Origin: Vermamoeba vermiformis
Taxonomy: Eukaryota
Assembly: GCA_045837725.1 (NCBI GenBank)
Contig: JBEWZL010000152.1
Coordinates: forward strand, 310,001-374,000
Direction: 5' to 3'
DNA length: 64,000 bases
Shown here: positions 5,378 to 49,716 of the stretch, one piece after another
Numbering within the stretch: the stretch's first letter is position 1
Layout of the letters: every line of letters begins with the position of its first letter
Notes under the pieces: generated by a model
The model's database searches: none
Seen by the model: only the letters and a program-made list of their open reading frames with translations
Told to the model about the DNA's origin: nothing
Program-made: the position numbers and the translations under genes

Positions 5378-5953
5378 TTAAATTCTGTGGCCCCATTTAT
5401 CGTGCTTAGCGTAACAGTCTCGTGCCCAGTGACTATCTCGACCACATCTGAAGCAGCAATCCGATTTGCCGAGATATTCACCATCAATAGAGACCTTAGT
5501 ATAACAATCTGTCACACCATGACCGTCTCTACCACATCTGACGCAAAAGTCATCGTCATCTTGGTAGATTTGTTGCTGGACCGGCGCAGAATATTGCTTC
5601 ATAAATTTTAGTGGACATTGATTTGCCATATGCCCATTTTGGCCGCATCCATAGCACCGCTGCGTATTGGTACGAAGCAAATCTAGTGGTGGATTTTGCA
5701 GCTCGGTTTGAACCCACGGCCCACCTCTCACTTTATCAACACCATATCTAGCCATATATTCTAGAGTTTTAGCCGTCTCTACTGCTTCATTTCCATCGAC
5801 TACCAGTTCAATCTGTTCTACTGGATGTATCTGCGTCCATACAGCGCCATTTCCGGTCATATGCGCCATTATTCTGTCATCGAAATTACGCGTAAATCCC
5901 ACATAATAATTTCCACCCCTTAATTTCAGGACATAGACCAATCCGTTCGACAT
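5378..5953 (-). CDS. GIY-YIG nuclease-domain protein with three CCHC zinc knuckles (copy 1)
   Basis: VYVLKLRGGNYYVGFT...R...H...E...YGVDKVRGG, then CYGCGQNGHMANQC, CVRCGRDGHGVTDC and CFRCGRDSHWARDC (CX2CX4HX4C). Coding region is intronless. Confidence 0.85.
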   Translation of the reverse strand: MSNGLVYVLKLRGGNYYVGFTRNFDDRIMAHMTGNGAVWTQIHPVEQIELVVDGNEAVETAKTLEYMARYGVDKVRGGPWVQTELQNPPLDLLRTNTQRCYGCGQNGHMANQCPLKFMKQYSAPVQQQIYQDDDDFCVRCGRDGHGVTDCYTKVSIDGEYLGKSDCCFRCGRDSHWARDCYAKHDKWGHRI

Positions 5954-6411: not shown

Positions 6412-7005
6412 TTATAATCTATTGCCCCATCGATCAAAGTTCGCTACGCAATCCTGGGACCAGTGGTTGTTCCTACCACATCTGGAACAGCAGTCGTCAT
6501 TGCCGATGAACTGTCTATTCCAGGTAAATGATGCCCGACAATTATCATATGAATGGTTATTACGGCCGCATCGAACGCAGAACTCGTCGACGTATGATTC
6601 CGAATCTGAGCCAGGGGACTGGCAGGATTGCTCTTCTTCGCCTGAATTATAGCCATTTTGAGGATACGATGGGCATTCGTTCGAGTCGTGGCCATAGAAT
6701 CCACAGTAATGGCAGCTGAAGGAATAAGCACGAACCAAATCTCGAGGTAAGCGCTGGATGTCGACTTGAGACCAGGGGCCGCCTCGAACTCTATGAACAC
6801 CATATTTTGCCATATATTTTAGAGTTACTTGTTGTTCTACTTCTTCGTTTCCATGATATACACCGATGACTTCTTCCACGGGATGTAGTTGGGTCCAAAC
6901 TGCTCCTCTGCCTTCCCAATGCGCTTTAATTCTCTCCTGAAAATTACGAGAATAACCAATATAATAATATCCTCCACGTAAACGCAAGACGTAAACAGTG
7001 TCCAT
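6412..7005 (-). CDS. GIY-YIG nuclease-domain protein with three CCHC zinc knuckles (copy 2)
   Basis: VYVLRLRGGYYYIGYS...R...H...E...YGVHRVRGG plus CHYCGFYGHDSNEC, CVRCGRNNHSYDNC and CSRCGRNNHWSQDC. Collinear paralog of 5378-5953, with a shared DxWGxR end. Confidence 0.85.
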   Translation of the reverse strand: MDTVYVLRLRGGYYYIGYSRNFQERIKAHWEGRGAVWTQLHPVEEVIGVYHGNEEVEQQVTLKYMAKYGVHRVRGGPWSQVDIQRLPRDLVRAYSFSCHYCGFYGHDSNECPSYPQNGYNSGEEEQSCQSPGSDSESYVDEFCVRCGRNNHSYDNCRASFTWNRQFIGNDDCCSRCGRNNHWSQDCVANFDRWGNRL

Positions 7006-7319
7006 TCTCTCGAACAGTCCAAGAACTTTCTGCGGTAGATCGTGTTAAACTAAATCGCCATGTTGGACTCGGGTTGTGACTTACGGTGATGTGAGGTGTT
7101 GTGATTAGTATACAAACAATATCAAAAATGAAATTAATTTCACAGCAACAGGTTGAAATCCCAAAAAGCGAGGACAACTGAAAATTCTTTTCGGGACAAT
7201 ACCTTGCCCCAAAAGCCTTTAAGTTAAACGACCAAAATTTTAAATAATAAGTGTTTCAAGTCATATTTAGTCGTTCACATGTATTTAAATAATGAATTAA
7301 TAATTCTTATCTCTCGCAG

Positions 7320-8368: not shown

Positions 8369-10132
8369 ATGGTTTCCTTTCACTTCGTGCTGGTCTTGTG
8401 CTCTTGCGTCGTACTCTCGACTGCATCAAATACTCCGATCTGGCTTTCTCCGTTGAACACCTCTGATACAAGTAAGTGTTGTTCATTGTAGATTTATTCT
8501 CGATTTCAGTTATGTGCTCAACCCAATTTTTTTGTTAATTTTTATTCGTTACAACGCATTGTAATGTTAGGGCAGTTTTTTGTTACATTAACTATTGTAG
8601 TAAAATTAACAAGATCTTTAGTAATTTAAATTTAAGCTGTGCGCTATAACTGAAATTGAGCATAAAGCAAAAACTTAAAATTTATTTAGGTGAATTTCAA
8701 TCGCCCAGATACGAGTGGACAGACATCAGCACTGGTGCTGGCGGCAGAGCTGGAGGTTTTTTGGTTGAAACAGATTCAAAAGGAACAATTTGGATTACTG
8801 GTGGCTACAGTTATACCAGAGATAATTCAAACGCTGTTTGGAACTACGACCCCAAGACTGATCTTTACCGTTGGGTCGCCGGCGCCGTCAATGACTCCAG
8901 CGTTGATCTGGTGGTTGTCACTGAGTATGGTGTGCCCAATGCTAACGGATTTCCTGGTAAAATGACTTTTACCGCTTCGGCGATCGACCATAACGACAAC
9001 ATCTGGATTTATGGAAGCGAAGATGGCATTACAAACATGTTCTGGCGGTTCAACACGACGTCATTTGAGTTTACTAACTTCATGATACAACGATACGCTC
9101 CTCCCCGTGTACGGCGAAGTTGGCGTCCCTGCATCTGGCAACACTCCTGGAGAACTTGAAGGCGCTAGTCTCACTGTTGACTCTCAAAACAATCTGTGGC
9201 TCTTAGGAGGCTATCGCTCAGGAACTGTCAACAGCGTATGGCATTTCAATACTACGTCACTGATGTGGACTTTTGTTGGAGGCGACGCTCTTAACCCCGT
9301 CAAAATCGACTTTGCGAACAAGACTTGGAATGGCCGTTGGATGGCTGCCTCTACAATTGATGAAGAAGATCGTATTTGGATATTCGGTGGATATGGAGAC
9401 GGTCCAGCTGGCGAGCAAAGAGTAGATTGGGGTGACATGTGGTCTTTTGACACGAAGACTTTGAAGTGGCGTGTCGAATGGGGAAACGAATCTTCACTCT
9501 TGATAAACAGTTCTTTAGCAGTGCCCGACGACTTCGACATTAACAACTATCCGCGGTCTAGAACAGGCGGTTTGATGGTTGACAGACGAGACGGCACATT
9601 GCTCGTTGGCGGTGGAAGTTTTTACGTTACTGACCAGGGCTTAAATGATTTTTGGCTATTCAACAAGACGAGCAAGATGTGGAAGCTCGTGTACGGCAGT
9701 ATTGGTTCTGATAAAGTCCCGAATAATTTCACAAATTACCGTGCCAAAGGAAGTGTTTTTGGATCTCGGATCTACCCGGGCAGATCAGGTGGCATTCATA
9801 ATCGTGGTAATCTCATTCTATATGGTGGTGAGGGTGGCAACTTAGCGTTCAGTGACATCTGGATCTTGCCTCAAGACCAGTGCGTGGGTGCCAATAACGA
9901 TTGTGACGTCAACGCTGACTGCGTCGCGTCCCCTACTGATTACTTCTCGCACACTTGTACCTGCAAAGAAGGCTATACTGGTAACGGCAAAACTTGCACC
10001 TTGCCTTCTCCATCCTCCGGATCGCCTTCTCCTGCGCCCTCCGGTTCGCCCTCTCCTTCTAAGACATCGGAAGCCGCTATCAAATTTGCCGTGCCTGTCT
10101 TTGCTATATTTTATGCCGTATTATCTGCGTAA
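8369..10132 (+). CDS. Secreted or surface Kelch-type beta-propeller + EGF protein with Ser/Pro stalk and probable GPI signal; one frameshift near 9083
   Basis: Signal-peptide exon MVSFHFVLVLCSCVVLSTAS, then intron 8472-8689. Kelch-like IWITGGY, LWLLGGY, IWIFGGY and LILYGG with downstream D.W motifs; EGF CDVNADC...CTCKEGYTGNGKTC; SPSP repeats; hydrophobic C-terminal tail. Confidence 0.8.
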
Positions 10133-10861: not shown

Positions 10862-13800
10862 TTAGAACGTTGGTCGTGCTCGCAATTGTTTCTCGAGATC
10901 TGCAATTCGTTCGCGCAGCAACTCATTTTCCAACTCCAACTTTCGTTTGTCGTCTTGATTGGCCGCGTTACTGCCACTCGTTGGTGCTGTTGAAGCTGCG
11001 GGTGTATTACCGCTTGTCATGCCAGCTGACACTTTGTCGCCGAGACCTTTCTTGATGCGCACAATCTTGCCCGTGTACAGAGCAATCAATGTCACCAAAG
11101 TACTGAACACCAACACTGCATCTGTCACGATGAACACGACAAGGGCGTTGGGAACAGCTGAATGAAACCACTCGTTAGCAAAACTTTCGTGGAGTATCGT
11201 GTTTGACAGGTGTCATAAGTAACACGTGGCACGAGTAGCAGTGACGAGTACGTATGTTTAGCATATGTTATTAACTTACTGAAGAGAATGGGAATGAGAA
11301 TCACTGCTGAGAAGCTGTAGATGTACACTGATAGCGAGACTGGTCTGGACTCGTTGTATGCTTCAGCCAAGTTGCGAGTCAAGAATGAAAGCACAATTCC
11401 GACCAACAAAAGAACGCATGACCAACCAAGAATGATGGCGAACAAGATGGTGCCAGTGCCTCCTGTTTGACACACCATCATGTATTGATCGGGTCCAAGA
11501 CTCTCGCGGTATGGTGCGGCAACAGGAGCATCGAGAACTGTCCACGTGATCAACACAGCAGTATAAACAGCTAAGATGCCGGCCAAGAATGGTGCCAGCT
11601 TCGCATCAGTGATCTTCTTGATGACGAGACTCTTTGTTGACAAGCGCCACAGACGATAAAGCTTCACAAAGATGCTTCCATAGATGAAACCAAAGCCCAA
11701 CTGTAGCAAGTTAGTTACCAACGTCATCTAAAAGAATGAAAAAGGTACTTACAGCGAACAGCCACATTGATGAAGTACACAGCGATGATGTCGTGGGAGG
11801 AATGGAGAACAAAAGAACTGACAGAAAGATGAGTGTTGCACCTCCGAGAGTGGTGTAGTGGAATGTTGGACTCGTGCCTCGAATGATCTGAGCAAAGGGA
11901 TTGAGTTAGAAACGATAGCAAGTAATAGTGCTAGGGAGCTCTCATCTTACCTTTTTGTTTCGGTGGATAATGACGAACACAACGAGACCCACGGCAATCG
12001 CAACACAGACCGCCGAGATAACTACAAATGCAATTCTGAGAGCATAAGGAAGTGTCACTTCGTAATCAAACACGGGTCGCTGAGCACCAATGAACAGAGC
12101 ATAAGCTGTTTGTTGTTCATGACGTCCGTACTTGTCGAGGAGTCCAGTTCCATGCATCAACTGTTGCGGACTGGAACTCGTCGAGTGACACTTCGTCGTT
12201 CAGGTACTGCGACAATCGAAAGCCCAGCGCATAATTGAACTCGCTGTACTGCTCCAGAGGCAAGTCAACAACCGCGTTGAGGCTGTTTTGAGCCGCCTTG
12301 CTTGAGGCAACCATCGTCGAAGCGGTCAAGTTGCTGAACCCGACATTGAGAAAGATGCTCGCGTTCATCAATGAGTCGCGCACTGGATCCCAGCCAAGAC
12401 CAAGAAGTACTGATTGAAGGTACTGCGAAGGCTGGCTGACAAAAGACAAAAAGTCGTAGGTAGCTTGAAGTCGCTCCGCAGGAATGAAGTTTGAGATTGC
12501 CATGGTCCATCCTAGCGTAGCTGCGTATGGTGCTCTGTTGAGTCCGAGACTGTCCATGTACGGACACAGCTCTTGAGTGCACTCTTCCATTTGTTTCGTG
12601 TTTCTGTTGTACACTGTACGAGAGCCAGGAGTGAGTGACATGCCTGTCACATTGGCCACGACGGAGGTGTTCAGTTGAGAGCGAACAGAAATGTCAGCCC
12701 AATCGAGGGCTAGAGCACAACGTCCCTCAGTCCAGGGATCTCGCATGTTTTCGGAATCCAACAGCGGACTGGTCCGAACAATCTCGCGCAAGATCTGTGC
12801 TGCTTCACGGAATGCTGGTGTGTTGACCATGATATCCATATTCGTGGGGTCGAAGAACATTCCTTGTTTTGTGCCAAGACTCTGAATCATGGGAGCAGCA
12901 ATTGTCCAAATCCAGTACGCGGTCGGGATCCATCCGGTTGTGTTCTTCGTGCCAACGCAAACGCCGTAGTCAGGAATACCGTCGTTGTTCAAGTCTTGAC
13001 CATCAAGCTTTTTCATGACGCTGATAAAGTCGTCCCTAAACAAAAGGAGGGTTAAAAGAAGGCTCGAGTGTGGCCACAAATGGCACCGCTTCTATTTTAA
13101 CTACGAATTAAGAAGAGAACCATGGAGATAATTATGTGCATAAGTTGCGTCGTAAATGGCTGCATATCAGCAGCGGACAATTATTAGGCACTTTGATGCA
13201 GCGCAAACACTAATTTCTTGATTTTGCTTGTGGTGCTCGCAGCCAAATCCGAAAAAAATTGAAATTTGTTCTTCGTTTTAGCTTGCCGAGCCAAGTTAGG
13301 AAAGGGACTCTATTTTTTTAAAATTTCGATCCCTTGTTTTAATCAATCTCCGAAATTTGCCGCCTTTTTAGGCAACTTCAGAACTTCTACTCACCATGTC
13401 TGAGGAACATCTAAACCAAACTTTTCGAGCACATCCTTACGATAGAACATGTAATGGAAGTCTAACAAATAAAATCAGCAATTAATGTTATTGTTCCAAA
13501 AGTCTACAACCGAATTTAGCATGTCAAATTTCTGACGCCTTCAAAAACGTGCGTGTAAGCTTACCTCCGTCAATAGGAACAGTATAAATTTCGCCATCGT
13601 ATGCACTATTCGTTGATCGTTGAAATACTGCAACATCGTTCCATTTCAGCGCTGCATCGTTGCGGATTAACTCCGTCAAAGGTGCAATCATTGGTCGTTG
13701 TTCAGGATCGCATTCAGAGCATAAAATAAGCTCGCTCTTGGTTTGGCCTGGGAACACAAATGCGTCATAGAATGGCGAACCCTTTCGTAAGTCTGCCAAC

Positions 13801-15071: not shown

Positions 15072-17917
15072 TTAGTACGTTGGTCGTGCTCGCAATTGCT
15101 TCTCGAGATCTGCAATTCGTTCGCGCAGCAAGTCGTTTTCGAGCTCCAATTTTCGTTTGGCGTCTGGATTAGCCATTGAAGTTGTGTAACTGGCCGGGGC
15201 TGTTGAAGTTGCGGGTGTATTTCCGCTTGTCATGCCAGCTGACACTTTGTCGCCAAGACCTTTCTTAATGCGAACAATCTTGCTCAAGTACAGAGCGATC
15301 AATGTCACCAATGTGCTGAACACCAACACTGCGTCTGTCACAATGAACACGACAAGGGCGTTGGGGACGGCTGTACGAAACCAGTCGTTAGCAAAACTTT
15401 CGTGGAGTATCACGTTTGACAGGTGTCATAAGTAACACTTGGCACGGGCATCAGTGCCGAGTACGTGTGTTTAGCACATGTTATCAACTTACTGAAGAGA
15501 ATGGGAATGAGAATCACTGCTGAGAAACTGTAGATGTACACTGATAGCGAGACTGGTTTTGATTCGTTGTATGCTTCAGCCAAGTTGCGAGTCAAGAACG
15601 AGAGCACGATTCCGACCAACAACAGAACACACGACCAGCCAAGAATGATGGCAAAGAGAATGATGCCAGTGCCTCCCGTTTGGCACACCATCATGTATTG
15701 ATCGGGTCCAAGACTCTCGCGGTATTGAGCGGCAGATGGTGGATCTAGAACGGTCCAGGCAACAAGAAGGGCGGTATACACAGCCAAGATACCGGCCAAG
15801 AATGGTGCCAGCTTCGCGTCAGTGATCTTCTTGATGATGAGACTCTTAGTTGAGAGTCGCCACAAGCGATACAGCTTCACAAAGATGCTTCCATAGATGA
15901 AACCGAAACCCAACTAGAACGAATGTCAGCCAAGAACAACCAATTTAAGGACGAAAATACTTACAGCGAACAGCCACATTGATGAAGTACACAACGGTGA
16001 TGTCGTGGGAGGAATGGAGAACAAAAGAACTGACAGAAAGATGAGTGTTGCACCTCCAAGAGTGGTGTAGTGGAATGTTGGACTCGTGCCTCGGATGATC
16101 TGAGCACATGGATTGAGTTAGAAACGATAGCAAGTAACAGTGCCCGAGAGGATCAATCTTACCTTTTTGTTTCGGTGAATAATGACGAACACAACGAGAC
16201 CCAAGGCAACGACAACACACACGGCAGAGATGGCAACGAAAGCTATTCTGAGCGCGTCAGGAAGTGTCACTTCGTAGTCGAATACTGGGCGTGGGGCACC
16301 AATGAAGAGAGCATAAGCTGTTTGTTGTTCACGACGTCCGTACTTGTCAAGGAGTGAGTTCCATGCATCAACTGTTGCGGCCTGGAATTCATCGAGTGAA
16401 ATCTCATCGTACAAGAACTGCGAGAGCTTGACACCAAGAGCCAAGGTGTATTCGTTGTACTTCTCCAAGGGCAAGTCAGCGACTGCGTTGAGACTGTTCT
16501 GAGAGCCTTTGTTCGAGGCTACCATGGTCGTGGCAGTGAGATTGCTGAAACCGACGTTGAGGAAGATCTGAGGGTCCATCTGTGAATCACGCACGAGATC
16601 CCAGCCAAGACCAAGGAGCACTGACTGGATACTATGAGCAGGCTGACTGACATATGACAAGAAGTCGTAGGTAGCTTGCAATCGACTTTGAGGAATGAAG
16701 CGAGAGATTGCCATGGTCCATCCAAGAGCTGCTGCGTATGGTGCTCTGTTGAGTCCGAGACTGTCCATGTACGGACACAGCTCTTGCGTGCACTCTTCCA
16801 TTTGTTTCGTGGCTCTGTTGAACACTGTACGAGACCCCGGAGTGAGTGACATGCCTGTCACATTGGCCACGACGGAGATGTTGAGCTGAGAGCGGACGGC
16901 AATGTCACCCCAATCGAGTGCAAGTGCACAACGGCCTTCAGTCCAGAGATCGCGAATATTTTCGATTGGGCTGTAGCGTGCGATCTCGCGCAAAATTTCT
17001 GCAGCGTCACGGAAAGCAGTAGTATTGGCCATAATGTCCATATTGTTAGGATCAAAGAAGAGGCCTTGCTTGGTACCCAGGCTTTGAAGCATTGGAGCGG
17101 CAATTGTCCAAATAAAATAAGAAGACGGGATCCATCCGGTTTGGTTCTTTGTCTCGACACAAGCGCCGTAGTCAGGAATGCCATCATTATTGAAGTCCTG
17201 GCCATGAACAGTCTTCATTACGTTAATAAAGTCAGCCCTAAATAAATAAAGTTATTTTTGGTCCCGGATTCAATTTCGAAACTGCCGAATCGGCAGTTAA
17301 ATGTGACTCACCATGTCTGAGGAACGTCTAAGCCGTACTTTTCCAATATGTCTTTGCGATAGAACATGTAATGAAAGTCTATAAAGAAAATATTAGCAAT
17401 GACAAGATCAAACATGTCAATCAACAAACCTCCGTCAATAGGAACAGTATAAATTTCGCCATCGTACGCACTATTAGTTGATCGTTGAAATACTGCCACA
17501 TCGTTCCATTGCAGCGCTGGATCGTTGCGAATATACTCCGTCAAAGGTGCAATGAGTGGTCGTTGCTCTGGATCGCATTCTGAGCATAGAATGAGCTCGC
17601 TCTTAGTCTGGCCTAAGAAAACGAACGCATCGTAGAACGGCGAGCCTTTTCTTAAGTCCGCTTCAATTTGATCTAAAAGGTCTCCAAAGGATTCGATGGA
17701 CACAATGTTCACCTAACAAAATTAGAGCTTAGCTAATCGCATATAAGCTTATTAAGTCTATATTTACCTTGTTGCCGGTGGCTGCTTCGTATCCAGGCAC
17801 ATGAATCTCAACTAGAGGCACTTGTACATCGTTCATAACGATGTTAATTGTCTCAGATCGAGCAATGGTTAAGAGACTTGCTATAAGCAGCAAAGCGACT
17901 AAACAATATCGCAACAT
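15072..17917 (-). CDS. Class C (GABA-B-like) GPCR with N-terminal extracellular solute-binding domain (copy 2, apparently intact)
   Basis: Same exon structure as copy 1, and the frame is open through the SBP/TM1 junction (ORF 16118-17218). 7tm_3-type TRN...NES motif and coiled-coil tail. Confidence 0.85.
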
Positions 17918-39430: not shown

Positions 39431-40080
39431 GAAATTCGAGTTTAACCGATTCAAATCCTGCTGGGTTCGTTTGGAGCGATCGCAGCAAGTTTTTCTCGGA
39501 AATAAACCATTCATTATTCTTCTCGTCGTTATTCAATTTATTTTTCGATCGTGAAGTTCACATTTATACGCACTACATAGTTTAAGTGCGCCAGCTTTGT
39601 CGTTAAAATTCACTTCCCGAAACAATCTTCCGTCTTTGGTTGAGCAGATCTATCTCAAGAGCCAACAATAATATATTGGCCACGATAGATATCATATGAT
39701 CGCATGTAGTTGTATTCTCTGGTGCTAGGCTTAAGTGGATACCTATATCACATCCAATTGTATTGCTGTGTTTGAATCATCTTCGTACACAGTCGGCAAG
39801 ATGTGGTCCGACGAAGAGGACGGCTTAGACGTGGGAGTGGCTGGTTTGCCCAGCGTGGGTGCAGCTGTCAAGCGGGTATTCACGCCAGTAATCAGGTTGC
39901 TCAAGAGCTCGAGCTGCTGTTCCTCGTCACCATCAAGCGCTGGAATGCCAGCGAGCGACAAACGGCCAGTATGTGACAGTGTCATCGTCGAGTACGGACT
40001 TGACAACACTGACGGAATTGCAGTGTAGCGATTTAACGAATTGATCTGTCTCTGACTAGTCAAAGTCTTGTGAGTGATAT

Positions 40081-40206
40081 CGAGATATTCACCATCAATA
40101 GAGACCTTAGCATAACAATCTGTCGCAGAATGACCACTTCTACCACATCTGACGCAAAAGTCATCGTCATCTTGGCAGATTTGTTGCTGGACTGGCGCAG
40201 AATATT
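40081..40206 (-). repeat. Dispersed copy of the middle zinc-knuckle segment of the GIY-YIG gene (5470-5595)
   Basis: Ungapped 126-bp match with about 9 mismatches by manual alignment. Encodes YSAPVQQQICQDDDDFCVRCGRSGHSATDCYAKVSIDGEYL. Confidence 0.92.
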
Positions 40207-40250
40207 CTGGTGCTACATTGTCACGCTCCTTTTGTGCCTCGCCACGGCTG

Positions 40251-43200
40251 CTAGAGGGCGGTGAATAGCTTCCAGTCAAACTCAATGGCGAGGTCTCTGC
40301 ATCCTGAGTCCCTTTGTCTTGGGCTGGATGAGGTGCGCAGTTCATAGCCAGCAAACGAGGTGGTTCGTTTGGTCAGTTTGTGTAGCTTGGCAGCTCTTTG
40401 CCTGACCCCAGTCGGGATGCACTCGTCGTTCATCCGCGTGTAGTTACCATCGCAATAGGTCTAGAAAAACGATATGAATAGATGTAATTATTAGAAATAA
40501 TAATTAATTCGTAAATAAAATGCCCGATGAAAAATTTCGGCCGTGATGGGAATGCCGGTTACTTTAAACATTGCACGAATATCTACGTACTTGATATTGT
40601 TCAGAAAACGTGGCATAGCCTCCTTCAAGCAAGTAGAGCTCGGGGTAATGTAAGTTCACTCCTCCATTGCGTTCCCAATTGATTCTACGGTCCATGCTGC
40701 GAACCTTTTTGTAGCTAAGCAAAAAAGAAATTTTAGCAATGGGCTTATCTATAATATGTTCAGACTTACGTATCAGGGCCTCTCTTAGATGAAAATTCGC
40801 AATAAAAGATGACCACGATAGTTTTGTTGGGTACTGGCGGGGTGTCAAAAAAATAATTTTTCAGATTTGTCTCTTCGAAAATATTGACTGCTCCGCGAAT
40901 ATGACCGCCTTCAAACTCGTATTGGTAGCGGCAATCGACGATAATATACTCGTCAATAGAATGAAAATCTCCGTCGATCAACTTGCAGACCTATTTTTAG
41001 GACATTAGATCCGACCTCGAAAGAAATTTCCATTTTAGGCGATTTGATATAATAAAAGTACTTACTGTCTCACCGGAAATGGTATTGAATTCAGGGAACT
41101 TGCCCCGGATGCAAGGGAGGTGTAAATCTGTTTTAGTAACCGGAAGGTGGATCTTGCTTGGTGTGAGGAGAGTCTTCTCCAACTTAACGCCACGAGCAAG
41201 CATGTTTGGCTTGGGCTTCTTCTTTGTTTTTACTCCGGAGCTGCCTTCGCTGGTTCTGGGTGTCGATCGTACCCGTCCTGCGCGTAGAATAAACTCCCTC
41301 TTCTTACGTAGGGTGTCAGGAGCCGACAGCGTTGACAAATCATCGCCAGCACTTGACGGCGTCGAACTGATCGCAGCACTCTCCTCGTCAGGCACAACTA
41401 AATCTGGAATGTCCGGGTATAATCTGCCGAGTCTGATCTCGTCTACATCATCGTCATCACGGCAGAACGCATCGACTAAGCTCCTCTTGGCAGTCCTTCC
41501 AGTCACAGTCAGGGCATTAATTTGACTAGCAATAGTGGTGACGGGAGGATGTCACCGGAGCCGCGCGGAGGGGCCCGATAACTCTTGGCAGGTCTTTCAG
41601 TCCCATGAATTTGACGCACAGTAAAGTTGAAGTGCGGACGTGTGAGTCGATCATCCGAATAATCCTCGACGTCAGATGTGCTGTCCTCAGTAATGTCATC
41701 GAGATCGAAAGCTATTGAGCGTCGCAGATCAAGGTCAGTTATGCGGGGTCGTGGCAACGGCTTAAACGCGTCTAACGCATTGTTGTCACGTGCTTGTTCT
41801 GTATCATGGGTGCGCAATTCACTCGTCGAACTCGTGTCTGTGGCTAGACTCGGTACATCAACGCACTCCATCTCATCTGCGCCAGTGCTGTGCATATCAC
41901 TAGTCTCGCTTGCAGCACGCGTTTCAGGCGGCTTCACTATGACCTTATTATTTCCGACACAGTCCTTCGACACAACGGTATTGAGCATCTTGCACATAAG
42001 CGAGAACATCTGATTTGCAAATTGTTTGTTCCGCGCGTCCTTCTTCAGTGCCTGGTGGAGATATTTTGCGTCTACTTGTGTAATGTTCAATAACGTTAGT
42101 CCTCGTTTGGTGAGTTCTTCAGCGATCTTAGTTCGTTTCAAATTGATTAGCCACCAAAGTATGGGCGGACCAGAGATCACCAAGGCAATGCACCCATGGT
42201 AGTGTGCTTCTCCAGTGAAGATTGGTGACGGTACTTGCTGGTCGATGACGTCATAGATTTGGTCCGCAGTTTGGTCTATTGGTGCGTGGCTGTCGTCATT
42301 ATTATTGACCTTGATCTCGATGAATATGGGCCCTAGTTGCATGACAGGCTCAACGCCAAGGAGCCACCGTGAAATGTACTTGAGGAACAGCTGTTGCGAG
42401 TCCTCTCTCGCTGCGTTGCTGAGAACAGCGTGGCCATTGATGTTGGGCAGTTGAAAGAAATTTATCACGGCCTGTTGGTCGTCGTTCAAGGAGGCAAACG
42501 GCACGGTTACTTCAGCGCCAAATCGCATGTTCAATTTGACTTCTGACCCGTTGTGTTTGGTCACTTTCGACACGGGTCTGATGGTGTCACCTTCGTCGGG
42601 AATGAACAGCAAGTACTCGTTGAAGAGGTCGTGGCACTCGCGATACATCGTCAAAAAATCAACGGAGCACACCAAAATGTTGCAATTTTTGTTGGTGAGA
42701 AACCATTTCGCACTGTTAGAGCATTGGTAGCGCAGCTGTGTCAGCGCTTGAAACACGCAGTCGTGGTGGCGCTTGTCATCGGGCAATACGAACATGACAT
42801 TAGCTAGCATTCTGTGATCTTCTTGGTACTGGATGTCGTAATTGGCTGGCAGCAGTGCGTGAATTAGATTGGTAGTTCTTGTGGGGATCGGGATCTCTGG
42901 CACAGCTTTTATCCTGCATAAATAATACGAATTAACTACGGAAGTCTAATTCAGTACTAGTGTCATACTTAGGTATCTTAGACTTCTTCTCGCCAATAGC
43001 GGTGTCATCTTGAGCGTGCTTCAGACGGCTTCAATCCAAGTGGTTTGTGAGGGGTGCCCACCTTGAAACCAATTCAAGCAGTACCAGCCAGGCACATCGA
43101 AACGTAATTTATAGAGCACGTGAGTAGCGTTAGCTTGGTCTGGATAATAAAACGGTCCTCGTTCTTTTCTTTGCTTTTCTGACAACTGCGAATTCATAGC

Positions 43201-43653
43201 CGTCAAATGTGACAGGCTCGCCTTTTACATCTGTAACGCAAAGTGTGGAGTCCGTTATTGTATTCAGCACCCAAGTCTCTCTACTGCATTTGAACTCGGT
43301 GTTGTCTGCTAGGTCGCTGGCCTTGGTCACGATCTTTTTGGTATCCTTTTTTCCTAGGCCAGGTTCGCACCACTTAACAACTGCGTTGGTATTAGATTGG
43401 GGAAGATCGTCAGTGAGGGTATAGCAAGCGAGGGCTTGTTGCTGCATGTCGGGGTAACTTTCAGATGTCAGCACTGACGCACCTTCGTCAAGGGAGAAAC
43501 TCGATGGGAGGCCAATCGTATGCGGTCTTTTAGAAGAAGGTCTATAAAAAATTATTTAATCGTTTGTAAGCGAAAAAAAATAAGCTGATCTTACCCTCTT
43601 GCCTCCTCATCTAGGGGCCTAATTTGATCGAATTTTCTTTTGAATTGTGTCAT
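40251..43653 (-). CDS. cdc25: Cdc25-family (rhodanese-fold) phosphatase with a very long N-terminal extension
   Basis: IVDCRYQYEFEGGHIRGAVN, FYCEFSSKRGP (CX5R) and RSMDR...LHYPELYLLEGGY. Upstream ORFs link via introns and single-base shifts (~41543, ~43020, ~43165), so a single-gene model is inferred. Confidence 0.78.
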
Positions 43654-43968
43654 TGTTTAGGCACAGGAAGATAAAAGCATATTTTTTTTTACGGTTTGAT
43701 GGATTTTTGGCCAACGTTTTTAGTCTGTTTTAGTCTGTTCAGCAGATCAATGCAAGCTTGAAAGCAACATTGCTTGCTTTTAAACGATATGGGTTTAAAA
43801 ATGACTATTTGTACAACTTGCTTTAATTTGTTGTGGTCCACATGGCTTCTTTTAAAAAAGAAATAAAAAAACAAAGGTCTCGCTGCAGTAAAGCCAAAAT
43901 TAAGTTTCCTCGGTTGCCATAGCGGTTATATATATATGCGCCATTTTCGAGTTCTGGCAATGAATGCC

Positions 43969-46900
43969 CTATTTCCACATCTGGCACTGTTCGGCCAAAT
44001 TGCTCCAGCGGTAAACAACTTTAGGCACTTCAATATCATCGTTGTCTACAACCACGTCCATTAAGAAGTAGTCCACTTCGCAGTCAGTCTTATTGGCTTT
44101 GCACAGATAAAACTCTGATACTCTGAAAAATAGTTAGACCTTGAAGGGATGCGAAAACACGTTCTACATACTTTTGAGAAAGCCGTGCTTGGTGTGATGG
44201 GATATAGTTGCCATATAGTAGCATAGAACTAGCAGCTATAAGTTCGACAGTCAGGTTGTACTTATGTTTGAACAAGTTGAGCAGCTCTTGAAAGGTCAGA
44301 TCTCCTTCGTCGATCACAAACTTGTTCCACAGTGTGTACTTGATATGCATGAAGTACTTGTCGGGTACTGCTATTGGGTATGATTGTACGATGCTAGGAA
44401 CAAATGTGTTGATGGAAGAGTTGCTGAAAGTAGTACACTCGACACTGTTCCTAGTGCGCATCTGACAACATTGTTAACTTTGTTATAACTTCTTATGACT
44501 ACATACCTTAATAAACTCAATAGTGGCTAGTCCGGCTATTATGGACGAGGTGGTGATTATTTTTGGAACGCGTTGCTTGAGCAGCATTAACGTGTCAACT
44601 ACTGGTTGTACTTCGATACCAAATGCTCGGGCCCGCAGCAACGCACCTGAATGAATCACAATCAAGTGGTCTCTATTGCCATCGATATCGCATTCAATTG
44701 GTGTGATTTTGAGCTGCGCTGAAATTTCATCAGCTAGTTTCACGAGCTCATCTTCTGAGACATTCGAGGCTTGGATACCACCGCTAGTGCTGACATCAAA
44801 CTCTCTCAATACAGTCTCAATGGCATGCTTAGTAACTGGCGTGCCTATAAAGCGTCTGTTAGTCTTCGGATCCGATCGGTTTTAGATCTGCGTTGTGACA
44901 TACGTTGTTCGAAGCCCACGGCCTGTGCTATCAAAGTAGCTAATGTGGCTACATATGTCACGTGTAGGGGGTCTTCAACGTTGAATGAAAAGGGCTTTGG
45001 CAACTGTTGGTTCGGTGTTAGCCATTCAGGCACAGGGTTGGAAAGCAGTCTCATCAACTCGCTGTAGAATAGCGCGTTGAAATCTCGTATCGCAGATTTG
45101 ATGCACTCTTCGAAGCTCCGTGGCAATTTTGCCATAATCTCATACATATAGTTCGTAGTCATGAGTTGCGGCAACTGGTACTTGGTTGGTGGATCCAAGT
45201 ACTGTTTCACTGAATTGAGTTCAGAAAAGGGCAATCGACAAACACGCCCTTGTGCCCAGCGGAGGCAGTGATCGAATCGATAGGGCCATAAGAATGCCCG
45301 ATCAGACGGTGGGAAGTGACGAGCAGGACCGTTGGATAAGTTCACATTGGTCGTCAAGTGCGGATAAATGACTTGCACATGACCTCTTGTGCCCGACATG
45401 ACACAGTCGATAAGAGGCTTTCTATAATTTTAAATCAGCATGAGCAGCACAACATTTAAACTTCAGAAAAACCGATCACGTGATTTGCTGTGAAATTTCA
45501 AGGTGAAATCTGAAACAACGCTAGCTAGTTTGACATACTCTAAGAACACGCAAGCGTCATCTACGGAGTGTCTAACAGGTGTTGAGCCAAAAACGACATC
45601 GTGTTGGGCCCAGGACTTGTATTCATCGCGCGAAAGTTCATCTCTGAGATTCTTCACGCACGCAGTGATATTTGATGTGCCACTCGTCAGCTGCTTAATT
45701 CTTTCTGCAGCTACATCCGCTTTGTTTTTCTGTGCGTATAATTGGTAAATAACGCTGTTGTGGGTCGTGTGATGTTAGCCAAGACTTACCAAGAGATCAG
45801 CAGAACGATACAGCACTTGACTGCAAAGATGAGGCACTTTAACTCTGCCTTTATCAATGACGAGGATCTCCCCGTCAGTGTTCTCCGAAGCAACGCCGAG
45901 TGCCGCTAAATTCTTCAGTATTTCACAGCCAATGCTGCCCGCACCTGCCACGAGCACCTTCGACTGTTGAATCTGTTGCACTGAATCTCGACCGAATAGC
46001 GCTTCCAAACCTTCATAGCGCGAGGGCGCCTATAATCGTAGCACATTAGATACTGTTTAAGGTAAACCTACGAGTGCCTTACTTGTGCCGAGGGATCGTG
46101 TTGAGGTGGTACTTGAGGCAGCACGTGAGAGCACTCGTAGAACAGGATTTGCTCGATAGGATTGCCACGACGTGTCACTGCCTTGACAATCTCGTGGGTC
46201 ATCAAGCCACCAATCACACTCGTCACTGGCGAGAAATCTACCGATGACACTTGTGCTAGTGTCGATAACAAGTTCTCGTTCAAATTACTTCCAAACTGCT
46301 TCGCTTGTCCGACAATTGCTTGTGCCTCGTCCGTGCCCCAAGGTACTATATTCAATTCATTAATAATACTAACGGAAATGTTGCACTGGGGGTGTACTAA
46401 TACTTACGAGGACAACGACCGTGCTGCTCTCGGAAGTTGATCAATGAGCGCAGCAAAGGCACAAAGTTGTTTGCCTTGGCACTGTCTGCACAAATCAGCT
46501 TTTGCGCGTCCAAGTTGCTTGACACGAACTCGCTGAACGGTGTCTAAAGATCCGAACTTAAGTAACCTGCACGAGGGTTGTTTGTACATAGAGTACGTAC
46601 GAATGACACTGTCTTAGTGCCTTCATTAGCGTTGTGATTGTCTTGATATCGCGCGTACATATCTTGGTCAGTGCTGTTTGACACGACAAATTGATCGCCC
46701 AAGTCATTAAACACAAAGCCAAACACTCCAAATGTGTCGCCGATAATAAGCGGAGTTCTATTCGCACGACATGTAGTATTGATAGCATTAATATAGTCTT
46801 TTGATCTGGCTTCAGTTACGCACACCAGATCAAATCCGTCGTACGAGTTTGAAGAATGGATCTTGATTTGAGCGTCTTCGTTTAGTTCTAATAATCTCGT

Positions 46901-47373
46901 AGATAATACTTTTGCTATATTTTTACCAACATCTTCTTGTTTGAAAAGGATCTAGAAGAAAATAAGTAAAGGTATTTTTTTATGATTGACGTGCAAGGAC
47001 TTACACTCGATGACAGATCGGACCTCTGCATAGTCCTATCATCTTGGACATATATTTGAGATACTCCCATTAGAGCCAAGTTCTTAGCTGAACGAAGAGT
47101 AAAGTTATTTGAGGATCCGTCTTTTAAAATATTTTTAAATTCTATTGAAGCTTATTTTGCAAATTTAATAGCTAGTATATTATTCAATACTGACTTAAAT
47201 GCAGCCTATAATGAATTTTATTGCGTACCTATTTCGGCGCCAAGCCCTCCAGCCCCAATAATTAAGATTTTGCTCGCTTGAAGGGCTGTTACTCCATCGT
47301 GCTCTAATACGGCCAATAATCGACTATATTTCAGGTCATAGTCATAGCTATCTGTCGCTGTGGTTGTGGCCAT
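43969..47373 (-). CDS. UBA1-like E1 ubiquitin-activating enzyme paralog, predicted catalytically inactive
   Basis: Both adenylation-domain repeats are present (ILIIGAGGLGAEIAKNLAL, VLVAGAGSIGCEILKNLA), with GTRGHVQVIYPHLT, PKIITTSSIIAGL and a UFD-like YTLWNKF...EVPKV. The catalytic Cys position reads Asp (codon 45301-45303). Confidence 0.85.
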
Positions 47374-48122
47374 GATGGTGGATTTGTAATTTCTCTTACA
47401 ACAAAATCTCTCAACAACATGCCTAGAGCCATGAAACTTCTTTTATGACGTGGACATATTCAATAAGTACTTGTCTTGTGGTCTGTTGCGCTCAATGTCG
47501 CTCGAATTTTCCTGAAACACCGCTCAACAGAAAAATCTGGCTGAGAACTTTACACAGAATTCGTTCTGCGGCATAATCGCTGCATTACAATATCATTACT
47601 TTGTACAACTCCGAATCAGATAATAATGTTGGCCGTTCCATAGACCAGGTAGCACTGGAATCGAATCAGCGCCTTCCTACGGTCTTGCTTGAATCGATAG
47701 AATCCACTCAGGCCTCTTCGAGTATAAAGTAACAAGCGGTAATCTTCTAGGTATCACGATTTTAATCAGAATTAAGGACGAGATTCAGATCTGTTCAGAT
47801 CGCGTACTGGTTTTCGATAATAGTACCATGTGTGAGAAGCATTTACAGTATAATCTTCGTAATTCGGTATTGCAAGATTGCAAGATACGTATCTTTGTAA
47901 ACGCAACAGCTGAGGCATCAGTCATGTGACTGCGAGTAATAATTTTCTGGTGAATCTACGAAAATTTGCTTCGGGTTTTTTTACAGCGGCCCATAAAAGC
48001 TCCGTTATTTTGTTCCTCTTCTTAGCAACGTGTCCAGCAAGAGGAACATAAATCAAAGCGATCTTGTTTCGCCCGTGCAGATCTAGATCGCTTAAAATCA
48101 TTAATAATAGAATTTTTACAAG

Positions 48123-49716
48123 ATGCTGAAGCAGCGTTCAATCCACAATGTGTGGGGTCAAACTAAGAAGATTGACTGTATTGTGCCCGGCTTATATTTG
48201 GGCAATGAATTAGAGGCTGGCTCTGTCTGGTAAGTTATTTCAATTATTTTAACGAATCTGTCAAATATTAACGCGGAGTATTTAGAATTATTAAAATCCA
48301 ATAGTATTACGCACGTTTTGCCTGTTGGTCAAGGCTTAAGAAGAAATTTTACTAAGGTAAGAGAGAATAAGACTGCATCCGATTTTTTATGGATTTCCAA
48401 CGCTTTTCTCGAGTTTGATTGGACTCCATTCTCGCTCTATCACTAAATTTACTTAATTAATATATTATCACGCAAACAGCATTGCAATTATTTATTTTGG
48501 ACGCGAGGACTGACACATTCATTCTGCCACAGGACTTTGTCTATTATCCGGAGGTGATCCGTGTGCTGGACTCTGAATTTGAAGACCTCTTGTCCCACTT
48601 CGATAAGAGTAAGTCATTAAACAAAGTTATTGGCCCCAGATCTCGCATGATTTCACGCGAAACTAGATGCCGTTATTAAATAGACTCAGTTATTCGTTAG
48701 AAATCAAATCATTCATGAAAACATGTACTAATATGTTATTATAGCTTATGAGTTCATCGACAATGTGTTGCAAAGCGGTAAATCAGTTCTTGTGCATTGG
48801 TAAGTACTCGCGGCATCAGATGTACCTCGTTTGAAGCAAAATAAGCGTAGTTAATGCTGCCAACACTAAGGATATAATAACATAGTACGCGGTACAGATT
48901 CCCGTCGTAAATATAGCATAAATAACGTATTCTAAGCGAGATCAAGCTCCGCTACAAACAACACAGCTGACTTTTATTCTTTAACTCAGTTCTGCTGGCG
49001 TATCTCGCAGTGCTACCGTAGTATTAGCGTAAGTAGAGGCATAGTATACGTATATTACTCGTGATATTAGCGAAGATTTTCGGTTACTTTGACACCGTGC
49101 CCCGAAATTAACAAGAAATATCGATCAGTTGCTTTAGCGCTGAGTTCATCAGTTTAAATACGATATTTACGCTTCATATACGGTGCATATCATTATCCTT
49201 AGCAGAATCTTTCATGATTCGTTCGAATAATACTGATTTAGTTTGTGTACCGGATCCACTTTGCAAACTCGCTTAGAACTCGTGAAAAGATACTAATATG
49301 AGGTTCTTATTTAGGTATTTGATGCGTAAATACGATTGGAAGTACGAAGAGGCCTATAACTTCGCGAGATCCAAGCGCAGAGTTATCGCACCAAATCCAG
49401 GCTTTGTTCAACAACTGCAACTCTATTGGGCCATGAAGTATGCGGTTGATACTGACAATACTGAATATAAGAACTACTTAGAAGAGCTCAAAGAGTCGAA
49501 AGGTATTGGATCTTGCTCTAAAGTAATAACACTTGTTTTTGCTGTTATTATTGCTTAAACTGACTTTTAAATTATCTCTAATGTATCTAAATATACTAAT
49601 ATACGTTTATTAACTATAGTGAGGGCTTTAAAACTCAGCTTCTCGTTGAAACAACATCAGCCGATTCCGGTCAAGTAGATCCGCTCAAAGCTGAAGCTAG
49701 CAAACCAATTGCATAA
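48123..49716 (+). CDS. Atypical dual-specificity protein phosphatase
   Basis: IVPGLYLG, ITHVL, spliced VLVHC|SAGVSRSATVVLA|YLM (HCX5R) and IAPNPGFVQQL. Confidence 0.9.

Follow-up and report, generated by a model that had tools for sequence, protein, structure and literature searches.

A probable pseudo-E1 from Vermamoeba vermiformis: a selected UBA1 paralog predicted to lack both E1 catalytic activities

The stretch of DNA analysed here, referred to as the window (64,000 nucleotides from Vermamoeba vermiformis, contig JBEWZL010000152.1 of assembly GCA_045837725.1, positions 310,001 to 374,000 of the forward strand), carries on its minus strand, at 43969-47373, a gene for an E1-like protein that is probably a non-catalytic, selected paralog of UBA1, that is, a pseudo-E1. 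Ubiquitin signalling has only one point of entry, the E1 enzymes. Its established regulators include pseudo-E2s (UEVs), pseudo-deubiquitinases and pseudo-ligases, and to our knowledge no pseudo-E1. If a selected and expressed E1 has lost both of its chemistries, the question arises whether a non-catalytic look-alike could control E2 charging or the handling of ubiquitin-like proteins. The E1-like protein would probably serve the ubiquitin system by binding to partners, not as an enzyme, and the analyses below bear on what it has lost, what it has kept and whether it is maintained.

The gene runs from an ATG at 47373-47371 to a stop at 43971-43969, and its boundaries coincide exactly with those given in a preliminary description of this DNA that had been made from its letters and open reading frames alone. 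Eleven exons, joined at GT..AG sites, form a frame of 902 codons plus the stop with zero internal stops; the ten introns, all GT..AG, measure 45-141 bases, in a window where introns are short and genes densely packed. The exon structure and reading frames are therefore preserved, as that description had proposed. No second E1 gene was detected in the 64-kb window by tblastn with two canonical E1s as queries, the only match being 43969-47373.

The domain content of the predicted protein is that of a UBA1-type E1. In Pfam analysis of nine stop-to-stop pieces, ThiF was matched in exons 1, 3, 6 and 7 (above the cut-off only in exon 6, at 55.4 versus 28.1 bits), UBA_E1_SCCH (PF10585) scored 60.3 bits against a cut-off of 21, and E1_UFD (PF09358) scored 38.9 against 25, in agreement with the earlier claim of a retained UFD; three of the nine pieces gave no Pfam match. 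The full-length alignment agrees on two ThiF-type adenylation domains in one chain. Exons 6, 8 and 10 matched only UBA1/6/7-type E1s in the PDB, with the UFDs of PDB E1s matching exon 10 at E=1.4e-5, and exon 7 alone gave just three chance matches there, all at E of 0.3 or worse and to proteins other than E1s. An AF2 model of exon 8 alone, based on a 47-row alignment, had a mean pLDDT of 74.4 with helices confident from residue 49 onward, and the best 28 PDB entries listed by Foldseek were all Uba1, UBA6 or UBA7 (TMq 0.48-0.62; best E=1.8e-3, none reaching 0.001). The model supports that exon 8 keeps the SCCH fold and nothing beyond that; a protein atlas search returned generic SCCH clusters only. 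At full length the best score was 333 bits, to an amoebozoan UBA1, the highest identity was 29% over 865 columns, and the best-scoring canonical E1s were those of amoeboid protists (Rhizamoeba, Willaertia, Clastostelium). By these alignments the E1-like protein is of UBA1 type, with the IAD/AAD pseudo-dimer, the four-helix bundle, most of the SCCH and the UFD retained.

We compared the catalytic sites mainly in a MAFFT alignment with 82 full-length E1s from the representative search. Exon 8 aligns without gaps to residues 591-670 of human UBA1 (9mc4_A; phmmer, E=1.8e-15), and this places an Asp, Asp510 of the E1-like protein, opposite residue 632, which we take to be the thioester Cys of the human enzyme. 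The same column holds Cys in 74 of the 82 E1s (Asp in four, Ser in two, Gly in one and a gap in one), and Cys in 130 of 132 canonical stretches in a phmmer alignment based on exon 8. Going from Cys to Asp510 requires a two-base codon change. The preliminary description, which had called the gene a UBA1 paralog devoid of the thioester Cys, is borne out on this point.

The ATP site is degraded as well. Exon 6 matches residues 415-490 of yeast Uba1 (5l6h_A numbering, used for yeast residues throughout) at E=1e-16, and the segment LVIDKGRVKVPHLCSQVLYR aligns to residues 468-486, so that the replacement of the ATP-binding motif reported earlier also stands, though D470 is kept: N478, an Asn in 78 of the 82 E1s, is His393, and R481, an Arg in 74 of the 82, is Ser396. 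The position of D472 is occupied by Gly387, and that of the Mg-binding Asp (D544), which is Asp in all 82 E1s, by Gly454. These two glycines, together with the FCCH deletion taken up below, are losses beyond those noted in the preliminary description. Retained, on the other hand, are K494, D470, the glycine loop (GxGxxG) and the IAD arginine R21. For yeast Uba1, PMC9378703 reports D544 as a ligand of Mg(1) and a near-complete loss of ATPase activity in D544A; it also reports that K494E is severely impaired and D472A fully active, and that R21A or R481A alone causes only a marginal defect whereas the double mutant is drastically affected. Because the single R481A change has so small an effect, the case for dead adenylation rests mainly on Gly454. 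Read in this way, the protein should be incapable of either E1 half-reaction, with a Mg-ATP site that appears broken (D544, D472, N478 and R481 all replaced) and with Asp510 in place of the thioester Cys.

The third loss concerns the FCCH, which in canonical E1s helps to hold ubiquitin. Residues 160-232 of the E1-like protein amount to 72 aa, whereas in canonical E1s the region has a median length of 141 aa and measures at least 117; one of the six conserved FCCH columns is kept, and the protein lacks the beta-barrel through which canonical E1s contact ubiquitin. Exons 3 and 5 are only 256 bases apart, which leaves no room for an overlooked exon encoding the domain, and its loss argues against ubiquitin binding of the canonical type. 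Of 136 columns with a conservation of 85% or more in canonical E1s, the protein keeps 74, compared to 120-135 in six canonical comparators. The losses concentrate in AAD-N (27 of 54 kept), SCCH (16 of 38) and FCCH, and IAD-N (13 of 15), AAD-C (7 of 9) and UFD (3 of 4) are mostly retained.

What has been altered around the old active site is conserved within the family. C476 is invariant in the four lineages of the family found so far (described below), at a position where canonical E1s have Ser in 116 of 130 and Cys in only 4 of 130, and it is accompanied by the family-specific invariants S479 (canonical Leu), D510 and F519 (canonical Ile). This pattern suggests that the former active-site cleft changed and then came under new constraint, rather than decaying. 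A further Cys, C522 in the motif 'DHCL', had been singled out beforehand as one that might form the thioester. It is invariant within the family, and as a relocated nucleophile it was ruled out: by alignment it appears to be an ordinary variant, since of 139 canonical stretches, which have the true catalytic Cys as well, 45 show Cys at this position and 85 Thr.

Could the protein nevertheless be an enzyme with altered chemistry, using C476, which lies next to the old adenylation pocket, or C522 as nucleophile and a remodelled nucleotide site to activate a ubiquitin-like protein or some other substrate? The invariance of a Cys that is so rare in canonical E1s, the conservation of the changed active-site residues within the family and the retention of the glycine loop, D470, K494 and R21 would all fit. 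The Gly at a position that is Asp in 82 of 82 E1s, and whose mutation to Ala leaves yeast Uba1 nearly dead (PMC9378703), the ordinary nature of C522 and the deletion of the FCCH nevertheless make such an activity improbable.

Evidence on expression came from run X6, which has an organism label other than that of the window and whose nature as RNA is only a guess. A 1532-nt intron-less contig of this run covers five exon blocks of the E1-like gene, with 36 differences in 1302 aligned bases. With this divergence of ~3%, the splicing it records is that of a close relative, not of the window's own strain. Six skips in X6 have CT..AC ends, equivalent to GT..AG on the coding strand (44123-44171, 44462-44506, 45422-45538, 45730-45789, 46030-46082 and 46952-47004). 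A seventh, reported at 44842-44900 with TG..CA ends, is offset by 3 bases from the gene model and would correspond to a canonical intron at 44845-44903 (GTATGT..TATAG) if the relative has one synonymous G>A at 44843. A loose contig end at 47089 agrees with an eighth intron, 47088-47228; the remaining two, 46544-46600 and 46346-46407, are predicted only. The lack of introns in the contig is a signature of mRNA, and supports that the E1-like gene is transcribed and spliced. RNA raw-read runs bearing the species label of the window (X21-X23), which is also that of the DNA runs matching it best, gave 5, 4 and 0 partial reads over 41400-48400, an interval that includes several genes, and are uninformative on expression. 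Among the runs listed as containing the sequence there is no RNA run; small shares occur in water, aquifer and canine metagenome runs and do not bear on habitat. As a separate observation, the near-absence of these reads over several genes indicates that the species label and the window DNA may differ in organism.

The same relative provides a measure of selection. Between the window and the X6 contigs, 35 coding differences were counted and 11 further ones lay outside the count. The 35 comprise 26 transitions and 9 transversions, a mix for which 10.5 synonymous changes are expected under neutrality, and 19 of them are synonymous and 16 non-synonymous (P=0.0023 for 19 or more; omega ~0.36, or ~0.25 from a crude site count). 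This supports that the E1-like gene is under purifying selection, in line with what the preliminary description had surmised. Nor does the gene behave as an unexpressed one with dN/dS near 1, given the spliced X6 contig and a ratio well below 1.

Deeper relatives point in the same direction. HMMER against 1.84 billion representatives gave 362 matches at E<=0.001, of which the best four are exon-sized open frames: P0001, on an NCBI contig and 96% identical; P0002, 48% identical, which clusters with three others on contigs of up to 10.4 kb; P0004, 45% identical; and P0003, 39% identical, the last three being open frames of 162-197 aa. The best exon-sized relatives and exon 8 have 30 invariant columns in common, and the phmmer alignment has Asp at the Cys column in all four family lineages. 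A full-length member of the family was not found in the 1.84 billion representatives with HMMER, the next matches being canonical E1s at <=32% identity. In word-index searches for longer homologs of exon 8, none of 215 candidates scored; the search for homologs of exon 3 returned as its sole match a fragment, P0176, 93% identical to that exon. A metagenome scan with a MAFFT alignment of the family (A1) gave 8 loci of 24-35% identity, no nearer to the family than canonical E1s.

Relatives and X6 contig differ in an in-frame segment of 51 bases in exon 8 (Table 1). It is coding in the window, is present in P0001 and aligns to coding sequence of canonical E1s; the X6 contig and P0004 are both without it. 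Its ends on the coding strand of the window, ATGAGA...CAACAG (AT...AG), are not those of a canonical intron. One A>G change would have sufficed to turn it into a GT-AG 'exitron' in the relative, and a 17-codon deletion is equally possible.

Since the frame and splice sites are intact, synonymous changes are in excess and open-frame relatives exist at 39-48% identity, we conclude that the gene is not decaying. A recently inactivated duplicate, functionless and drifting towards a pseudogene, would explain the long branch of the protein in the trees described below (2.91 versus a median of 0.95 changes per column), the mere 74 of 136 conserved columns kept, an omega that is not very low and the lack of coverage by RNA reads of the window's species label, uninformative as these are. 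Such a duplicate would hardly be expected to keep a 902-codon frame open across ten canonical introns, to yield a spliced transcript contig in X6, to show a synonymous excess, or to have open frames in three further lineages with 30 invariant columns, and we regard drift to a pseudogene as slightly less probable still than altered chemistry.

Several observations weigh against the view of a selected, non-catalytic E1, or soften it. The alignment that yields Gly454 leans on anchors in the next exon, since exon 7 by itself is unrecognisable as E1; nucleotide binding may persist, because no change is seen in the glycine loop, D470, K494 or R21; and the loss of R481 taken singly counts for little, R481A yeast Uba1 being only marginally defective (PMC9378703). 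An omega of 0.25-0.36 indicates moderate constraint only, with 11 differences outside the listing, and the RNA label of run X6 is a guess. In the relatives, MAFFT alignment A1 places Gly/Trp, not Asp, near the Cys column of P0003, the within-family comparison covers exon 8 only, and deep relatives of exon 6 (0 of 3 candidates) and of exon 3 were not found in the word-index homolog search.

A pseudo-E1 of the kind we favour would have arisen from a UBA1-type ancestor whose overall scaffold it keeps. Adenylation would have been lost via Gly454 together with the changes at D472, N478 and R481, and the thioester step via Asp510, with deletion of the FCCH. Its mRNA is correctly spliced, judging from the X6 contig, and its product is kept by purifying selection. 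In canonical E1s the UFD and the SCCH jointly form the docking surfaces for E2s, and the protein would then act by binding, not by catalysis, via the same surfaces, which it has retained. Of the single mechanisms we consider regulation of E2s, or an adaptor role towards them, the likeliest, and put it forward tentatively; the alternatives are a remodelled pocket that binds another ligand or a ubiquitin-like protein, or residual non-canonical chemistry. The preliminary description had spoken of a pseudoenzyme serving as an E2/ubiquitin scaffold, an inhibitor or a decoy for pathogen effectors. Its core, a selected UBA1-type pseudoenzyme with a broken Mg-ATP site, is upheld, whereas ubiquitin binding of the canonical kind is disfavoured by the loss of the FCCH. 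As a special case of the pseudoenzyme, a decoy that traps effectors aimed at the host E1 is the least probable reading of all, as only general fast evolution and the non-catalytic status speak for it, and against it the signal in the available differences is purifying, not diversifying, the family-specific residues are conserved and the neighbouring genes scanned include no effector or immune context.

Table 1. Exons and selected segments of the E1-like gene (positions in the window; yeast Uba1 equivalents in brackets).
Feature	Position	Strand	Content	Support
Exon 1	47229..47373	-	Start codon, IAD N-terminus, 'YSR' arginine R18 (yeast R21), GxGxxG motif	ThiF match
Exon 2	47005..47087	-	IAD	X6 joint 46951>47005, gene model
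Exon 3	46601..46951	-	IAD, then beginning of shortened FCCH region	ThiF match; donor at 46600 predicted only
Shortened FCCH region	46478..46684	-	Residues 166-215, one intron inside	Alignment
Exon 4	46408..46543	-	FCCH remnant and start of four-helix bundle	GT-AG, frame, alignment to canonical E1s; both flanking introns predicted only
Exon 5	46083..46345	-	Four-helix bundle and C-terminal part of IAD	X6 contig 46082-46332, joint 46028>46082
Exon 6	45790..46029	-	Active-type AAD, intact GAGSIGCE loop, degenerate ATP motif	ThiF 55.4 bits; yeast Uba1 E=1e-16
Degenerate ATP-binding motif LVIDKGRVKVPHLCSQVLYR	45805..45864	-	D385 (D470) kept; G387 (D472), H393 (N478), S396 (R481)	
Exon 7	45539..45729	-	K409 (K494) kept; G454 codon 45586-45588 at position of Mg-binding Asp (D544)	
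Exon 8	44904..45421	-	AAD end and first SCCH half; Asp510 codon 45301-45303; C476, S479, F519, C522	
In-frame 51-base segment	45004..45054	-	Residues 593-609	No counterpart in X6 contig
Exon 9	44507..44844	-	Second SCCH half, return to AAD (VPKIITTSS)	X6 joints, alignment
Exon 10	44172..44461	-	Linker and first part of UFD	Pfam E1_UFD E=1.4e-9; PDB E1 UFDs E=1.4e-5
Exon 11	43969..44122	-	Rest of UFD, short C-terminal tail, stop	X6 joint 44122>44172, alignment

Elsewhere in the window, the minus strand has a pair of closely similar genes at 11125-13091 and 15410-17251 that resemble a tandem duplication. Each has a long extracellular-type region, and the first of the pair also has a class C G-protein-coupled receptor domain (7tm_3, E=3e-26). 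Frames at 5378-5953, 6412-7044 and 39743-40372 (minus strand) comprise a GIY-YIG nuclease with CCHC zinc knuckles, in two adjacent copies, and a further CCHC frame, and are possibly remnants of mobile elements. The plus-strand frame 9086-10132 has Kelch repeats followed by an EGF domain, a Ser/Pro-rich tail and a hydrophobic end, features that point to a surface protein. A short way downstream of the E1-like stop, an X6 contig shows a 53-base GT-AG intron at 43542-43594 (minus strand). This intron is part of the following minus-strand gene, which starts within a few hundred bases (frame 43130-43555, no Pfam match).

The alignment of 82 E1s also contains further full-length UBA1-type proteins without the catalytic Cys (labels P0088/P0156/P0157, P0120, P0053, P0059, P0064 and P0015). 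XP_037276569.1 of Rhipicephalus microplus and two cluster mates have Asp in the Cys column and Thr at R481; XP_012760074.1 of Acytostelium subglobosum has probably Asp, with a one-residue gap nearby, and Thr; CAG9314284.1 of Blepharisma stoltei has Asp or Thr depending on the gap, and keeps the Arg. A Protostelium nocturnum transcript has Ser and Gly at the two positions, KAI9137809.1 of Paraphysoderma sedebokerense Gly and Cys, and the metagenomic P0015 Ser and Thr. The arginine is thus gone in five of the six Cys-less lineages, and the Cys has most often given way to Asp. Their spread over a tick, a dictyostelid, a ciliate, a protosteloid and a blastoclad fungus suggests that the phenomenon is wider than one genome.

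Phylogenetically, the tick copy falls among the UBA1s of mites and crustaceans and the ciliate copy among those of ciliates, and as each nests within the UBA1s of its own lineage the two arose separately. The window protein has the longest branch of the set, and its position shifts with the method. FastTree puts it beside microsporidia-like long branches, and a quick, site-heterogeneous IQ-TREE tree (42 rows chosen from the 83 aligned, 41 being left out) places it with P0089 and the Acytostelium P0120 (SH-aLRT 80 and 89), a grouping flagged for long-branch attraction. Kinship of the window family with the Acytostelium copy is therefore weakly suggested, and may reflect that artefact. Asp is also seen at or near the Cys position in the tick paralog, in Acytostelium and in a metagenomic protein, which would point to Asp itself as the object of selection; one possible purpose would be to keep an E2 or a ubiquitin-like protein in a stable complex that does not transfer it. 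Whether Cys-to-Asp pseudo-E1s make up a recurrent, so far undescribed class of regulators atop the ubiquitin cascade is a little more doubtful than the E2-directed role proposed for the window protein, and we raise it as a possibility.

No description of an inactive E1 or 'pseudo-E1' was found in the literature searched, which is weak evidence because most subscription journals lie outside its coverage; the accessible part of one candidate source, PMC11354881, concerns RBR ligases and not an inactive E1.

Among known systems, the closest in build are the canonical UBA1-type E1s (UBA1, UBA6, UBA7 and yeast Uba1), which likewise combine IAD, four-helix bundle, AAD, SCCH and UFD in a single chain, but which possess the catalytic Cys, D544, R481, N478, D472 and the FCCH, and are longer (~1000-1060 aa versus 902 aa). 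The Cys-less paralogs resemble the window protein in being full UBA1-type proteins that have lost the catalytic Cys and are uncharacterised in public databases, and that of Paraphysoderma also has a short FCCH region (51 aa); unlike the window protein, all have D544 and match 94-116 of the 136 conserved columns, and so are far less degenerate. In concept the nearest parallel is with the UEV proteins (Mms2, UEV1A and TSG101), pseudo-E2s that have lost their Cys, work by binding and have an experimentally established function. Both they and the window protein are Cys-less paralogs of a thioester-forming enzyme of the ubiquitin cascade, but the UEVs have another fold and act at another tier, and the window protein is known from its sequence. 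Finally, NAE1/APPBP1, SAE1/AOS1 and the IAD of UBA1 are ThiF-fold adenylation domains without catalysis that serve as structural partners. Each of these pairs with an active domain, whereas in the window protein both adenylation domains appear to be inactive.

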